DNA of 64,000 nucleotides from a phage. A program made the translations under genes and the position numbers. Below the pieces are notes generated by a model. The model did not search any database. It had not been told where the DNA came from and saw only the letters and a program-made list of their open reading frames with translations. Shown here piece by piece: positions 17,533 through 62,988 of the stretch. Position 1 is the stretch's first letter; each line of letters begins with the position of its first letter. The DNA is taken from NCBI GenBank assembly GCA_018995085.1, contig GCA_018995085.1_3936.1. One strand, written 5' to 3'.

Positions 17533-17880
17533 ATGAAAACTTGTATTAGGTGCAAACTTAGCAAGGATGAAAATGATTTCTACATGAAAGATGGTAGGAG
17601 AACTCATTCATACTGTAAAAAGTGTGTTAATGAGCAAACCATAGAAAGACAAAGAGCACTTAAACTCTTAGCTATTGAGTACAAAGGTGGGATTTGTCAT
17701 GATTGTGGTAAGAAGTATCATCCAGCAGTGTATGACTTCCATCATTTGAATCCTTCAGATAAAGATTTTAACATTGGTCATAGGAAAAGCCTTAAGTTCT
17801 CTCAAGAACTAAAAGATGAACTTGACAAATGTGTTTTGCTATGTTCAAATTGCCATAGGGTAAGACATGCAAAATATTAG
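17533..17880 (+). CDS. HNH homing endonuclease
   Basis: CxxC..HH..N..CxxCH motifs (FHHLNP, CVLLCSNCH); ATG at 17533 with GGAG upstream; the track start at 17482 overlaps the upstream tRNA-like gene. Confidence 0.75.
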   Translation: MKTCIRCKLSKDENDFYMKDGRRTHSYCKKCVNEQTIERQRALKLLAIEYKGGICHDCGKKYHPAVYDFHHLNPSDKDFNIGHRKSLKFSQELKDELDKCVLLCSNCHRVRHAKY

Positions 17881-18017
17881 TTAGCAGATTACTTAGACGA
17901 CCTTAGCGGGTCTTCCTGTAGGGAGGTGGTCTGTATCTCATGTTTTCCAGAACATGTAAATAATCTGAGAAGGGGCTTTACAGTGTTGAGATAATACGGT
18001 AAGCTTCGAATTATAGT

Positions 18018-18100
18018 ATGGGACGATGTTAAGACTCTAAGGCATGAGCAACGGCTTCCAACACCGTTTCAAAGGGGTTCAACTCCTCCGTCCCATGCCA
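18018..18100 (+). tRNA. tRNA-like gene, probable Trp (anticodon CCA) with enlarged D region
   Basis: acceptor ATGGGAC/GTCCCAT perfect, loop TTCCAAC, 83 nt. Confidence 0.45.
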
Positions 18101-18113
18101 AAGTCTTATTAGG

Positions 18114-18203
18114 GGTAGGTAGCGGCTAATGGTAGCCAAACTGTCTTGAAAACAGTTGCCACTGTAGAGATACGGTGAGGGTTCGACTCCTTTACTTACC
18201 GCC
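18114..18203 (+). tRNA. tRNA-Ser (anticodon UGA), type II
   Basis: anticodon stem ACTGT/ACAGT, loop CTTGAAA, 20-nt variable arm. Confidence 0.7.
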
Positions 18204-18459
18204 TAATAAGATTTACTCCGTCCATGCTTGTTCGCATTGTCGGTTTATCCCTCGTGTATTGTCGTACACACTGATAAAACACCTAGTAGGTGTCACGGAG
18301 AAGAGATAATATCAAGCTCTCTAAAGGTTCTAGTCACCGGATTAAACAAGACTATGCAAAGACCTTTTTAGGTCTTTTTAGAGGGCTTCTAAGGTTATTA
18401 GTCGCTTGTTGTGGAACCTTGTTGCTTAGGTTCTTAGAAGTTCTCTAAAAAGATTTAAT

Positions 18460-18538
18460 GGGAGATTGACGGCAACTTGGTAGACCTATCTCGCTTAGAA
18501 CGAGATGCTTGAGGGTTCGAATCCCTTGTCTCCTACCA
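18460..18538 (+). tRNA. tRNA with UAG anticodon loop (Leu-type anticodon) but short variable arm
   Basis: anticodon stem TCTCG/CGAGA, loop CTTAGAA, D-loop AACTTGGTAG, 4-nt variable region. Confidence 0.5.
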
Positions 18539-18545
18539 AATTAAT

Positions 18546-18621
18546 GCAGGTGTAGCAAAATGGTTATGCGGCTGACTCTTAATCAGTAAGACGATGGGTT
18601 CAATTCCCTCCACCTGTACCA
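18546..18621 (+). tRNA. tRNA-Lys (anticodon CUU)
   Basis: loop CTCTTAA; T-arm region similar to the UUU copy. Confidence 0.55.
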
Positions 18622-18627
18622 AACAAT

Positions 18628-60066: not shown

Positions 60067-60474
60067 TAGCTATAAAAGAGAGGGGTTCACACCCTTCTTT
60101 GAAGAAAAAAGTTTAAATAAATTTCAGGAAGAGTGTTTGACAAAGATTGATAGGTTCTATAGAATGCTCTGCATGAAATGTGATGGAGGCGTTGAGGTAG
60201 AAGAAAACTTCCATCACAGTATTATTACAGTCACTATTACTATACCTCAGCATAATATTGGTTGGCTGTTTATAATGAAAGAAAATGTGTTTGAATATCA
60301 AGTATATCGGAGAATATCATGAAACACTCTAAAGCATTTGAAAAAGTTTTTGGTGATTCCTTAAAAGCCACTGCTGGAAAACCAGCAAAATACTATGAAG
60401 AAAAACGTGTAAGAACTGGAAAAACTGCACGTAAAGCAGCTTCTAAAGATAAGCACAACTTCCAGTAATTAGTA

Positions 60475-60503
60475 TTTGACAATAGAGTATCAACAAACTA
60501 GAA
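60475..60503 (+). promoter_or_regulatory. sigma70-like promoter TTGACA-N17-TAGAAT
   Basis: hexamers read directly upstream of 60541 gene. Confidence 0.55.
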
Positions 60504-60540
60504 TTGGTACTCTTCATAAATTGAGATAGAGGTTTAAATA

Positions 60541-61398
60541 ATGTCTAAAGTTGTTAAAATGAAAGCTCCGGTAGAGAAGTACAACGGTACTGAGCGTCAA
60601 ACTCTGCGTTACCTGCTGAAAGATGTCTGGTTTTATTACCTGAACACTTCACCACGTCCGGGAAAAGGTAAGTCTATTGATAAGAAATTCCCAGGAAAAG
60701 ACTGTAACTACAGCGTATCAATTCTGGCAGAAGACGGTAACAAACTGTTTAAAGAGTTTACTAAGTCTAAGAAAAATCCAGAAGGCTGGGATAAAGTCAC
60801 CACTGAAGCAGTTGATGCAGATGACTTCGAAGAGAAGTTTGGTTGTAAACCACCTTTTGAAGCAGACACTTACTACATCTTGAAAGTAAGTCGTGCAGCA
60901 GCTTATAAGGATGGTGCTGTATGGACAGCTAAACAGTCATTCCCTGTAATGCTGATTGAAGAAGTAAATGGTAAGCGTGTAGCTGTTAAGCAGCCAATGA
61001 AGAAAATCAAAGCTCAAGCATCTGATAAACATGAAGATGACAAGAACTATGATGTAATTCACCCAGATATTGCAGTTGGCAACGGTTCTTTTGGTAGTGT
61101 GATTCTTTCTACTCACTTCTACACTTTTGAGAACAATGTTCTGACAAAACCTATTCAGGAACAGTTTATCATTGATACTCTTGTGCCTTACACTGGTGGT
61201 AACGGTGCTAATGGTGAACCTGAACTGGATGAAGATGAACTGGCTATGCTTGGTCTTGATGGTGTCGAAGATAACGGTGAAATCACTGAAGAAGATGCAA
61301 CAGACCATAAATCTTCGAATGAGTCTGATGATGGTGATGATGAAGATTTGCCAGACCCAGATGACGAAGAGGATGAAGACTTCGATACAGAAGACTAA
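60541..61398 (+). CDS. putative single-stranded DNA-binding protein with acidic C-terminal tail
   Basis: strongly acidic C-terminal 60 aa ending EEDEDFDTED; position in replication module. Confidence 0.4.
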   Translation: MSKVVKMKAPVEKYNGTERQTLRYLLKDVWFYYLNTSPRPGKGKSIDKKFPGKDCNYSVSILAEDGNKLFKEFTKSKKNPEGWDKVTTEAVDADDFEEKFGCKPPFEADTYYILKVSRAAAYKDGAVWTAKQSFPVMLIEEVNGKRVAVKQPMKKIKAQASDKHEDDKNYDVIHPDIAVGNGSFGSVILSTHFYTFENNVLTKPIQEQFIIDTLVPYTGGNGANGEPELDEDELAMLGLDGVEDNGEITEEDATDHKSSNESDDGDDEDLPDPDDEEDEDFDTED

Positions 61399-61417
61399 TC
61401 TCTAAAAGTTACTTTAA

Positions 61418-61444
61418 AGCCCTGTACTTAGTATGGGGCTTTTT
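61418..61444 (+). terminator. Rho-independent terminator (AGCCCT..GGGGCT + TTTTT)
   Basis: hairpin plus T-run after 60541..61398. Confidence 0.6.
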
Positions 61445-61460
61445 CATATGGAGAGCCATA

Positions 61461-62501
61461 ATGGAGAAGTACACATTAACAAAGCTTCCCGATTCAGTTA
61501 CACATGTCTTTATTGACTCTGACAGTATTGCCTATAAAGGTGCTTGTGTAGTTGAGAAAGCAAAATATAAATACGTCAATAAACTCACAGCAGAAGAATC
61601 TGAGCCATTTGATAATGCGAAAGATGCTGCAAGATGGTTAGCAGACCAGAGAATCCTTGTGGAAGAGCTTGGCCTGACATTTGATGAAGATGAATGGGAA
61701 AGACAGACTTGGAAAGAAGCTAAGAGTGAAAAAGAAGCTATCATGGCTACTCAACAGGTGCTTCAGGAATGGCTTAAGGTTGTTGGTAAAGAGAGAACTT
61801 GGGTAGGTTATTTAACAGAGAAAGGTGTGCATAAACATAAAGACATTAAAGGTCTTGAGCACCAATATCAAGGTAACCGTAAAGATGCTGTCACACCAAC
61901 ACACTTAGTTGCTTGTCGTGAATATCTTTTATCCAGACCAGAGTTCAAGCTTTTAAAGGGTGGCTTCGAAGCTGATTCAATTGTAATTGCTAAAGCTGAA
62001 AAGATGGGTAAGAAAGCTGCTCTTATGAGTATTGACAAAGACCTTCGACAAGCTGAAGGAACTTATTGTATTGATATGACTTATGAAAAATCACCACTAA
62101 TCTTTATTGCTGACAATAATGTTGGTGATATCTGGGATTGTCCTATCAAGTCAAAACCAAAAGCTGCAAAAACAGTTGGTGTAGGTTTTAAATTCTTGTG
62201 CTATCAGGCTGTTGCTGGAGATAATGCAGACAACTACTTCGGACTTAAAGGTGCTGGTAAAGTAGCTGTGATGAATGCTTTAGATGGTAAAGAGACCTAC
62301 AAAGAGTGTCTTGATGCTATCTATGAACTCTATGCTAAAAAAGACTCTTACACCTATGTATCATGGGATGGACAGACTGTTACAAAGACACCGTTAGAAC
62401 TAATGGAACAGCATTTCTGGATAGCTTATCAAGAAAGAAATCCAAAAGATAATTTCTCTTTTAAGAAATATAATTGGGAGCCGTGTATGAATGAAGATTA
62501 A
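61461..62501 (+). CDS. 5'-3' exonuclease / flap endonuclease (T5 D15-like)
   Basis: FIDSDSIAYKG N-terminal motif, FEADSIVIA and GDNADNYFGLKGAG blocks. Confidence 0.7.
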   Translation: MEKYTLTKLPDSVTHVFIDSDSIAYKGACVVEKAKYKYVNKLTAEESEPFDNAKDAARWLADQRILVEELGLTFDEDEWERQTWKEAKSEKEAIMATQQVLQEWLKVVGKERTWVGYLTEKGVHKHKDIKGLEHQYQGNRKDAVTPTHLVACREYLLSRPEFKLLKGGFEADSIVIAKAEKMGKKAALMSIDKDLRQAEGTYCIDMTYEKSPLIFIADNNVGDIWDCPIKSKPKAAKTVGVGFKFLCYQAVAGDNADNYFGLKGAGKVAVMNALDGKETYKECLDAIYELYAKKDSYTYVSWDGQTVTKTPLELMEQHFWIAYQERNPKDNFSFKKYNWEPCMNED

Positions 62502-62988
62502 AGGATTTGGCAATTGCCCCACCTATGGTCATTGGGTATCTTTATGTGGGGAAGTTGACCCCACTAAACATTTTGGTTTTGTCTATTTAGTACACTGTAA
62601 GAAGACTGGACAATATTATATCGGAAAGAAACAGCTTAACAGTGTGACCAAAAGAAAAGTTGCTGGGAAGACTCGGAAGAAGGTAGTCACTAAGGAAAGT
62701 GATTGGATGACTTACGAGACTTCTTCTGAGTATATTAAAAAAGATATTGAAAGCTTTGGAAAGGAATCTTTTGACTTTTACATTATCCAAACCTACTACA
62801 CGAAAGGTGGTTTAGTTTATGGTGAAGCAAACCTTCAACATAAATTCGATGTAATGACAAAAAGGATTGACTCTAAGCTCAGACTCTTCTACAATGCCAA
62901 TATTGCAGCAATTAAGTTTATTACTAAAGAAACTTATGAAGATGCTGAAAAAAGAATCCATAAGGTAATGAAAGCGAATTGTGCTTGA
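62491..62988 (+). CDS. GIY-YIG-like protein (T5orf172-type)
   Basis: FVYLVHCKKTGQYYIGKK matches GIY-(10)-YIG spacing. Confidence 0.45.
   Translation: MKIKGFGNCPTYGHWVSLCGEVDPTKHFGFVYLVHCKKTGQYYIGKKQLNSVTKRKVAGKTRKKVVTKESDWMTYETSSEYIKKDIESFGKESFDFYIIQTYYTKGGLVYGEANLQHKFDVMTKRIDSKLRLFYNANIAAIKFITKETYEDAEKRIHKVMKANCA

Follow-up and report, generated by a model that had tools for sequence, protein, structure and literature searches.

Two probable HNH homing-endonuclease cassettes and a conserved GIY-YIG nuclease gene in a Felixounavirus genome

The mechanism of free-standing homing endonucleases, the co-conversion of flanking DNA and the resulting marker exclusion have been described by Edgell, Gibb and Belfort in 2010 (PMC2988022). 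In phage T4, SegF, SegG and MobE cut a neighbouring essential gene, co-convert its flank and thus perform intronless homing (PMC2988022, PMC2790892), while segB lies between the genes of tRNA-Arg and tRNA-Ile and favours inheritance of the tRNA region in mixed infections (PMC2988022). Nucleases at the boundaries of genetic exchange between phages have been treated by Barth et al. (PMC10448857), and according to the paper on the BASEL collection, infestation with homing endonucleases and gene conversion prevent whole-genome alignment of larger phages. For Felix O1, six HNH homing-endonuclease-like genes were reported by Whichard et al. in 2010 (PMC3185647); homing-endonuclease genes of other Felixounavirus members were counted by comparative genomics (PMC8300805). 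Here, a stretch of phage DNA comprising 64,000 nucleotides (nt) (assembly GCA_018995085.1, contig GCA_018995085.1_3936.1; in the following, the window is this whole stretch) was analysed for three nuclease genes, an HNH gene within the tRNA array (17533-17880), an HNH-AP2 gene at the end of the DNA polymerase gene (52370-52921) and a GIY-YIG gene behind the 5'-3' exonuclease gene (62491-62988). In a preliminary description made from the letters of the sequence, all three had been regarded as selfish endonuclease genes at insertion hotspots, each marking a likely point of genome variation. The data presented below make it quite probable that the window, which belongs to Felixounavirus, harbours two genuine free-standing HNH homing-endonuclease cassettes and one GIY-YIG nuclease that is not mobile.

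The affiliation of the window was derived from megablast searches with the neighbourhoods of the three genes. Each search returned 220-270 phage records, nearly all of them Felixounavirus genomes (Felix O1-like myoviruses, subfamily Ounavirinae) of Escherichia, Salmonella and Shigella phages, and the best matches were 92-98% identical. A T5-like phage, to which the tRNA array, the polymerase and the flap nuclease might have pointed, was rejected on the basis of these matches. ARAGORN detected 25 tRNAs between 15796 and 21372. The Pfam scan covered the 81 open reading frames (ORFs) of the window with at least 70 amino acids (aa) and revealed terminase, major capsid and tail proteins among the structural families. 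The window further harbours a replication module with a ligase, a family A polymerase, a primase/helicase, a flap-type exonuclease and a MazG-like gene. All three nuclease ORFs exist at the positions given above and their families were backed by profile searches. Among the 81 ORFs, Pfam did not reveal any further HNH, GIY-YIG or other homing-type nuclease, and a phmmer search with five endonuclease queries against the six-frame translation of the window retrieved the three known genes only. The initial list of nuclease genes is complete. None of the three proteins was matched by an NCBIfam model.

The product of the HNH gene in the tRNA array matches phrog_2255 ('HNH endonuclease') with an expect value (E) of 1.8e-38, and Pfam HNH (PF01844) with an E of 0.0045 and 17.6 bits, which is under the cut-off of 21.4 bits. 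Its best solved relative is the HNH domain of McrA (6ghc, E 9e-4), aligned via the pattern CxxC...HH...N...CxNCH. The protein contains an N-terminal zinc-ribbon-like region (CxxC...CxxC) followed by a Cys4 HNH motif (FHH...N...CSNCH) with the residues C55xxC58, H70H71 and C101xxC104H105. By its profile match, the catalytic His, Asn and His and the flanking CxxC pairs, it is an HNH endonuclease, and its gene indeed resides within the array detected by ARAGORN.

The borders of the inserted DNA could be determined from relatives lacking the gene. When 22 related IMG/VR loci were compared by blastn, the nucleotides corresponding to window positions 17522 and 17877 were found to be joined directly in L034, L037, L038 and L043-L046. 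The occupied allele reads ...CGACCAATT (TTGGAGAAATC ATG ... AAATAT) TAGTTAGCAG, with the cassette in brackets, and the empty allele ...CGACCAATT^TAGTTAGCAG..., where the caret marks the junction; the empty site can also be written CCAATT^TAGTTAGC. It follows from these junctions that the mobile unit has a length of 354 nt and consists of a ribosome-binding site and the ORF, whose stop codon is the resident TAG of the empty site. Since the empty relatives place the cassette boundary at 17523, the ATG at 17533 is the correct start codon. On both sides, the flanks are at least 90% identical up to the junction. Copies with at least 80% aa identity occur in 28 of about 270 phage records matching the neighbourhood; the IMG/VR sample contains one close copy (L042), which is intact and exhibits a ratio of non-synonymous to synonymous substitutions (dN/dS) of 0.12 versus the window. 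Other relatives carry unrelated HNH genes (33-40% identical) elsewhere in the array, for instance between the positions corresponding to 18017 and 18102 (L043, L045 and L053), and the corresponding stretch of Felix O1 contains two HNH genes. The distribution is sporadic and the empty site precise, as expected of a homing gene. The pattern bears the signature of free-standing homing-endonuclease genes. The array is a real hotspot, in which relatives have acquired several independent HNH insertions.

The HNH-AP2 gene had correctly been described as abutting the polymerase gene (52893-55622). Its protein is matched by Pfam HNH_3 (PF13392) with an E of 6.2e-12 and 45.4 bits (cut-off 24.8) and by phrog_99 with an E of 2.4e-59. 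I-HmuI (1u3e) was retrieved with an E of 0.001 and aligned over VDHKNG...N...N. The profile score above the threshold and the DH...N...N motif assign the protein to the HNH_3, I-HmuI-like group. At its C-terminus, Pfam AP2 (PF00847) gave an E of 5.2e-5 and 23.9 bits, under the cut-off of 33.3 bits, and phmmer matches to plant AP2/ERF structures were weak (E 0.01-0.5). A link between the HNH-AP2 endonucleases of phages and cyanobacteria and the AP2 domains of plants was reportedly drawn by Magnani et al. in 2004. If the TTG at 52921 were used as start codon, the ORF would overlap the end of the polymerase ORF by 29 nt. The position of the cassette, which starts at the polymerase stop, makes the in-frame ATG at 52882 the more likely start codon; the protein would then comprise 170 aa.

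An alignment with L004, L007 and L009 revealed the empty alleles at this site to read ...GAAGTACA/CTAATTAGTGT/TGACAAGG..., where the window possesses approximately 525 nt between the polymerase stop and the resident TGACAAGG, the TGA of which serves as the stop codon of the endonuclease. A survey of this slot in 32 IMG/VR loci, oriented on the polymerase C-terminus, showed that it is empty in ten loci whose polymerase end was located, nine of which have the B-type polymerase end introduced below (L004, L006-L009, L014, L016, L022 and L030, besides L024). L027-L029 do not contain a gene downstream of the polymerase either. Close copies of the window gene, 90-95% identical, fill the slot in L001, L002, L013 and L032, while in further loci it is filled by quite distinct relatives from this family (40-54% identical), which fall into at least three or four classes. 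In the variants of L003, L005, L010, L012 and L017, the last ca. 100 nt and the first ca. 60 nt are nearly identical to those of the window gene. The shared ORF ends, of which the 52370-52480 side of the window corresponds to the end of the AP2-like domain, suggest swapping within the cassette between conserved ends. In GenBank, close copies are present in 26 of about 262 records; the wider HNH-AP2 family was encountered in 1560 phage records at 2358 places. All close copies are intact and their dN/dS values range from 0.09 to 0.36. Its sporadic distribution, the precise empty site and a seemingly co-converted flank, which is dealt with below, are the properties of a homing gene. With four or more HNH-AP2 variants in the slot and a mobile group I intron in the polymerase gene of 98 GenBank relatives, the polymerase end qualifies as an insertion hotspot as well. 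The assumption that each of the three genes marks genome variation holds for both HNH genes, close copies of which are carried by roughly 10% of the Felixounavirus genomes and which are replaced by precise empty sites elsewhere, but it does not hold for the GIY-YIG gene.

The GIY-YIG gene directly follows the exonuclease gene, as had been proposed, and even overlaps the stop codon of this gene (61461-62501). The 165-aa protein is matched by Pfam SegE_GIY-YIG (PF19835) with an E of 4.9e-28 and 98.3 bits (cut-off 25) and is therefore a member of the SegE subfamily of the GIY-YIG superfamily. In an alignment of 50 family sequences, the residues G29, Y32, Y43, G45, K47, W72, Y75, S78, E112 and N135 are invariant. 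Hence, with Y32, Y43, E112 and N135, the protein has intact GIY and YIG tyrosines as well as an intact catalytic Glu and Asn. An Arg, which is canonical after YIG, could not be recognised, K47 being invariant instead. From the intact residues, the protein is predicted to be catalytically competent. Its GIY-YIG domain extends from residue 21 to 138 of 165, and within the protein neither an extension nor a second Pfam domain was detected, nor a DNA-binding domain of the Seg type. Architectures were compared in the 150 best representatives of the family. Seventy-two of them comprise at least 225 aa and 66 fewer than 190 aa, the window protein belonging to the domain-only class. Ten long members (225-393 aa) were inspected and possess C-terminal NPMFG/NUMOD3-like repeats in most cases and helix-turn-helix-like or zinc-finger-like tails in the others. 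A sequence search for solved structures did not yield any relative of the GIY-YIG protein, the matches being glucokinase noise (E about 1).

The gene was found in 28 of 28 related loci with an aa identity of 86-99%. GenBank contains about 253 records with at least 80% identity, i.e. essentially the whole genus, and 45 records with 60-80% identity, including phages of Hafnia, Erwinia and Yersinia. Yersinia phage P778 as well as Erwinia phage Panisse (genus Kolesnikvirus) retain the order of exonuclease, GIY-YIG gene, small ORF and MazG-like pyrophosphatase gene. The Nei-Gojobori dN/dS values of the GIY-YIG gene (0.03-0.06) are close to those of the flanking exonuclease gene (0.035-0.07), and versus P778 and Panisse its dN (0.32-0.33) is lower than that of the exonuclease gene (0.42-0.43). 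An empty site or a sporadic presence was not observed among the relatives examined. Fixed, syntenic and under strong constraint, the gene belongs to the core of the Ounavirinae and is not a variable element. What does vary at this junction is another gene. In 12 of the 28 loci, approximately 490 additional nt separate the exonuclease and the GIY-YIG gene and encode an HNH-AP2 protein related to that of the window (phmmer E 7e-30); in the GenBank record of vB_SflM_004, the three genes are annotated in the order 'exodeoxyribonuclease', 'HNH endonuclease' and 'NAD synthetase'. The variable element is this HNH-AP2 gene, which is absent from the window. In relatives, the notion of a hotspot holds at the third position too. 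The best PHROG match of the GIY-YIG protein, phrog_447, is labelled 'NAD synthetase'. This label is common in RefSeq and GenBank records and in T4-like cyanophages, although the sequence does not support it, and was apparently carried over from phrog_447.

By analogy, the GIY-YIG protein most likely serves the phage, either in DNA replication, recombination or processing together with the adjacent exonuclease or in the degradation of host or competitor DNA. A precedent is T4 endonuclease II (DenA). This small GIY-YIG enzyme stands alone, has no separate DNA-binding domain, introduces nicks into the DNA of the host and works for the phage rather than for homing. Candidate roles are, in particular, the degradation of host or competitor DNA and the processing of recombination intermediates in conjunction with the flap exonuclease. 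T4-like cyanophages carry domain-only GIY-YIG homologues with about 35% identity. A wider picture is put forward tentatively, being somewhat less probable than not: a domesticated nuclease that has a core role in the DNA metabolism of the Ounavirinae, perhaps in T4-like cyanophages too, alongside a series of HNH-AP2 genes with matched polymerase ends. A literature search for papers combining GIY-YIG with Ounavirinae did not yield any.

It is conceivable that the GIY-YIG gene is a Seg-type homing-endonuclease gene which was swept to fixation in the Ounavirinae and is kept because its product cuts more distant co-infecting phages and excludes their markers, a competitive and not a housekeeping role. 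The protein belongs to the SegE-type family and its catalytic residues are intact; about half of the best representatives of the family are long and exhibit typical homing-endonuclease architectures, and nucleases beside essential replication genes are typical of homing elements (PMC10448857). On the other hand, no DNA-binding module that could direct the protein to a specific site is recognisable. Between genera with saturated synonymous sites, purifying selection on the gene equals that on the exonuclease in strength, and such constraint is unusual in a selfish element with no empty sites left. Moreover, domain-only homologues are common in T4-like cyanophages, with Synechococcus, Prochlorococcus and 'Cyanophage' accounting for about 394 of 770 matching records. 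A fixed selfish endonuclease is therefore considered unlikely. The view taken at the outset, that all three genes are selfish homing endonucleases each marking genome variation, is still less credible. All three proteins do match nuclease families used by homing endonucleases, some GenBank records name the third gene 'GIY-YIG homing endonuclease', and T4 SegE, after which the Pfam family of this gene is named, is a proven homing enzyme (PMC2988022). However, a gene which is found in all 28 loci and in some 300 GenBank Ounavirinae records, which occupies the same position in other genera, which is as constrained (dN/dS 0.03-0.06) as its essential-looking exonuclease neighbour, and whose product lacks a DNA-binding extension does not behave as a selfish variable element, and no empty site for it was found.

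A non-mobile GIY-YIG gene thus being preferred, the two HNH cassettes remain as the elements that have probably moved. At the polymerase, a possible trace of this movement can be seen in the flanking gene. Upstream of the last 240 nt of the polymerase gene, close relatives lacking the endonuclease share about 97% of the nucleotides with the window. Within these 240 nt, the identity of the same relatives falls sharply to 65-83% per 60-nt bin (73-75% overall). Sixty-eight to 70 of the 80 residues encoded by the tract match, and about half of the codons for the same residue are identical. Downstream of the cassette, the flank is again at least 90% identical. Two haplotypes of the polymerase end were distinguished. 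Haplotype A (RRACEEGLTK...LLAYHDEN...DWMYG) was present in nine loci, in all of which the slot is occupied, while haplotype B (RRMIDEGLMK...LCAYHDET...DWYYG) was present in 12 loci, three of them occupied. The association of haplotype and occupancy is significant by Fisher's test at p = 0.001, uncorrected for relatedness. This linkage matches what intronless homing with co-conversion would predict, and the tract is probably a co-conversion or self-immunity tract and the place where genomes devoid of the endonuclease contain its target. An allelic series of HNH-AP2 genes may occupy the slot behind the polymerase gene, in which each gene would be paired with a recoded polymerase 3' end as immunity determinant.

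It can be inferred from the sequence comparisons that both HNH cassettes most likely spread by intronless homing. During co-infection, the HNH enzyme, if active, would nick or cut a related genome devoid of the gene at or near the empty site, in the case of the HNH-AP2 enzyme presumably within the last ca. 240 nt of the polymerase gene. The damage would then be repaired by recombination with the donor genome, whereby the cassette would be copied into the recipient. For HNH-AP2, repair would also import the adjacent diverged 3' end of the polymerase gene, which would render the carrier resistant to its own enzyme.

Several observations weigh against the interpretation given so far. The association between haplotype and occupancy ignores shared ancestry, and the common breakpoint at -240 nt in six relatives without the endonuclease fits one historical recombination event and not repeated homing. 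Three loci with haplotype B (L010, L011 and L015) carry other HNH-AP2 variants, and L013, whose copy is 95% identical on the aa level, has a polymerase 3' end that is only 81% identical to that of the window. In view of these four loci, the haplotype is not strictly tied to the HNH-AP2 allele of the window. The HNH gene of the tRNA array is not accompanied by flanking divergence, and nothing marks its target or explains self-immunity except the disruption of the site by the insertion. As to the GIY-YIG protein, fold support is weak. An AlphaFold model built on an alignment of 13 sequences attained a predicted local distance difference test (pLDDT) score of 71, falling below 50 around E112 and N135, and the best Foldseek match in the PDB, the catalytic domain of I-TevI, was not significant (E 0.68).

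A different target for the HNH-AP2 enzyme would be the insertion site of the polymerase intron about 555 nt upstream. In such a collaborative (trans) homing, the free-standing endonuclease would act for an intron lacking its own endonuclease gene, an established concept for an endonuclease beside an ORF-less intron (PMC2988022, PMC2790892). Relatives indeed contain a group I intron in the polymerase gene. In phage warpig and others, the gene is split into two coding sequences (CDS), and the spacer of warpig was identified as Rfam Intron_gpI with 63.3 bits and an E of 8e-15. The intron site maps between window positions 53450 and 53449 on the minus strand, at the codons for NGIYA/LLFGAG, and at this common site the intron was detected in L001 and L026-L031. 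Introns of 268 nt and 311 nt do not contain an ORF, while those of about 800 nt encode an endonuclease VII-type HNH protein. In L001, positions 3199-3474 were compared with this site. The genome announcement of phage Mushroom mentions only a gap of 383 bp and no obvious endonuclease ORF (PMC4392139), and in place of the intron, many records contain two CDS annotated as 'DNA polymerase'. Both IMG/VR loci with an ORF-less intron (L001 and L031) possess an HNH-AP2 gene downstream of the polymerase, and the same is true of warpig, garuso, Tf, Mushroom, NS7 and EC106 among the phages in GenBank. Nevertheless, the window carries the HNH-AP2 gene without any intron, and its insertion-site sequence (AATGGTATCTAT GCACTGCTG TTCGGTGCAGGTGAT) is the same as in L004, L006, L008 and L022, which lack both the intron and the endonuclease. 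A target at this position would mean self-cleavage. Furthermore, the divergence linked to the endonuclease does not reach beyond the final 240 nt of this gene, the bins at the intron site being 93-100% identical, and most intron carriers have the EndoVII-type HNH ORF of the intron itself. For the window allele, collaborative homing was rejected on these grounds; sequence comparison points neither to the intron site as the target nor to protection of the carrier by an intron, and the model as a whole is regarded as improbable. That the HNH genes are immobile housekeeping genes, encoding for instance terminase-associated packaging enzymes as in HK97-like phages, is hardly tenable, for though HNH proteins are capable of packaging roles and both ORFs are intact and under purifying selection, each gene is missing at a clean empty site in about 90% of the Felixounavirus genomes, neither adjoins the terminase gene, taken to be the 538-aa ORF 21802-23418 (Pfam matched a terminase in the window, unmapped), and the slots hold unrelated or allelic endonucleases in other relatives. 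Intronless homing of the two HNH cassettes is retained as the most likely mechanism. The features on which it rests are compiled together with those of the GIY-YIG locus in Table 1.

Table 1. Positions of the nuclease genes, the inserted cassettes and adjoining features in the window
Feature	Position	Strand	Size	Remarks
tRNA-like gene	17437..17515	+		Rfam tRNA 31.7 bits; cassette begins 7 nt past the CCA end
Mobile HNH cassette	17523..17876	+	354 nt	ribosome-binding site (GGAG) and ORF without stop codon
Free-standing HNH endonuclease gene	17533..17880	+	115 aa	phrog_2255, McrA HNH similarity, intact ORF
Free-standing HNH-AP2 endonuclease ORF	52370..52921	-	183 aa	HNH_3, AP2 (sub-threshold), phrog_99, 1u3e
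Inserted HNH-AP2 cassette	52373..52896	-	~525 nt	between polymerase stop region and resident ...TGACAAGGTGC...
Family A DNA polymerase gene, intronless in the window	52893..55622	-	909 aa	Pfam DNA_pol_A E 7.5e-16
Divergent polymerase 3' haplotype	52896..53135	-	last 240 coding nt	identity drop, slot linkage
5'-3' exonuclease/flap-endonuclease-like gene	61461..62501	+	346 aa	phrog_107 'exonuclease' E 2.4e-63
Overlap of exonuclease stop and GIY-YIG start	62488..62501	+	11 nt	unoccupied HNH-AP2 site in the window
SegE-type GIY-YIG nuclease gene	62491..62988	+	165 aa	PF19835, domain-only

The neighbourhood of the HNH gene in the tRNA array deserves some further remarks. The tRNA-like element preceding the cassette has an anticodon loop CUUCUAA (UCU), a long variable region of about 21 nt and no D arm. 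ARAGORN did not call a tRNA at 17437-17515, and the fold energy of the element is no better than that of shuffled sequence. A canonical tRNA-Arg(UCU) occupies this slot in L035, L049 and L054 and a close variant in L041 (ARAGORN was run on L035 only); a canonical tRNA-Arg(UCU) is often found here in relatives without the HNH gene. The 190 nt upstream of the element (17246-17435) gave a tmRNA-like match of 17 bits, far under the gathering score of 47. A scan for promoters and terminators around the HNH gene did not reveal anything informative. The array also contains a DUF7338 gene (19455-20012, Pfam E 3e-62), whose homologues in phage contigs of about 120-180 kb are 58-78% identical.

Besides the nuclease loci, some other regions attracted attention. 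On the minus strand, there are two paralogous small ORFs at 50544-50735 (63 aa) and 51060-51263 (67 aa), separated by one 84-aa ORF; they share the zinc-ribbon-like motif ...F(I/L)L.V.GK.FRC.CG.NCFHKPD...Y.CN.C.... The annotation 'DNA ligase' is given in phage warpig to a short ORF which abuts the ligase gene. The exonuclease gene upstream of the GIY-YIG gene, assigned by its PHROG match, gave a value of only 0.052 with Pfam 5_3_exonuc. Between 3822 and 5357, a region of approximately 1.5 kb is free of ORFs reaching 38 aa. This AT-rich region (31-37% GC) contains many short tandem repeats, 10-11 or 20-24 nt long, with the cores TGTTAG and TGTTAAGAG, and its GC skew flips its sign near 4200. 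From its sequence, it appears iteron-like and may function as a replication origin or as an extensive regulatory region.

Beyond annotation, the significance of the data is small, since homing endonucleases of Felix O1-like phages have been reported since 2010. This kind of feature is already known, the lineage is already sequenced, and annotated near-identical copies of all three genes exist in GenBank; among them, with identities on the aa level, are those of phage mio for HNH (98.3%), HMD-P8 for HNH-AP2 (96.5%) and FSL SP-107 for GIY-YIG (100%). What is added here is the correction that the GIY-YIG gene is a core gene and not a marker of variation, the exact boundaries of the cassettes and the link between polymerase 3' haplotype and occupancy of the slot. 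In practice, the GIY-YIG gene should be avoided as a variation marker and should be named neither 'homing endonuclease' nor 'NAD synthetase'; it is a candidate for functional studies. The group I intron explains the split polymerase genes of many annotated relatives. Endonuclease-driven recombination has presumably scrambled both the polymerase 3' end and the tRNA array, and neither is suitable for phylogenies or for typing primers of these biocontrol phages.

In comparison with described systems, the window protein of the SegE family shares with T4 SegE the GIY-YIG subfamily and the conserved Tyr, Tyr, Glu and Asn. A C-terminal DNA-binding region is present in T4 SegE and in the long members of the family, which are sporadic and mobile, whereas the window protein consists of the domain only and its gene is universal, syntenic and constrained. 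The likeness to T4 endonuclease II is a functional analogy only, as neither a sequence nor a fold match to this enzyme was obtained. The HNH-AP2 protein resembles I-HmuI, the intron-encoded HNH nicking enzyme of phage SPO1, in its N-terminal DNA-binding and HNH region and in the DH...N...N motif. I-HmuI is encoded by an intron and has a helix-turn-helix C-terminus, while the window gene is free-standing and its product ends with an AP2-like module with a sub-threshold AP2 score. For the HNH gene of the tRNA array, T4 SegB is the closest characterised positional analogue, since it is likewise encoded by a free-standing gene among tRNA genes which adjoins a gene of the tRNA-Arg type. Unlike SegB, which is a GIY-YIG enzyme, the window gene product is a small Cys4-HNH protein with a zinc-ribbon N-terminus, known here from its sequence. 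With the HNH genes of Felix O1 and other Felixounavirus members, the window genes have the genus and the gene families in common. The published descriptions of this genus (PMC3185647, PMC8300805) count endonucleases; there, the fixed GIY-YIG gene is not separated from the sporadic HNH genes, and a linkage with haplotypes of the polymerase 3' end is not described. The system to which the polymerase locus comes closest is that of T4 SegF, SegG and MobE. In both cases, a free-standing endonuclease gene lies beside an essential replication gene, the flank is co-inherited, and the cut is expected in the neighbouring gene of genomes devoid of the endonuclease. What distinguishes the window from the T4 enzymes is the I-HmuI-like HNH domain combined with AP2, the family A polymerase as the neighbour and the population-genetic footprint by which homing would be recognised here.

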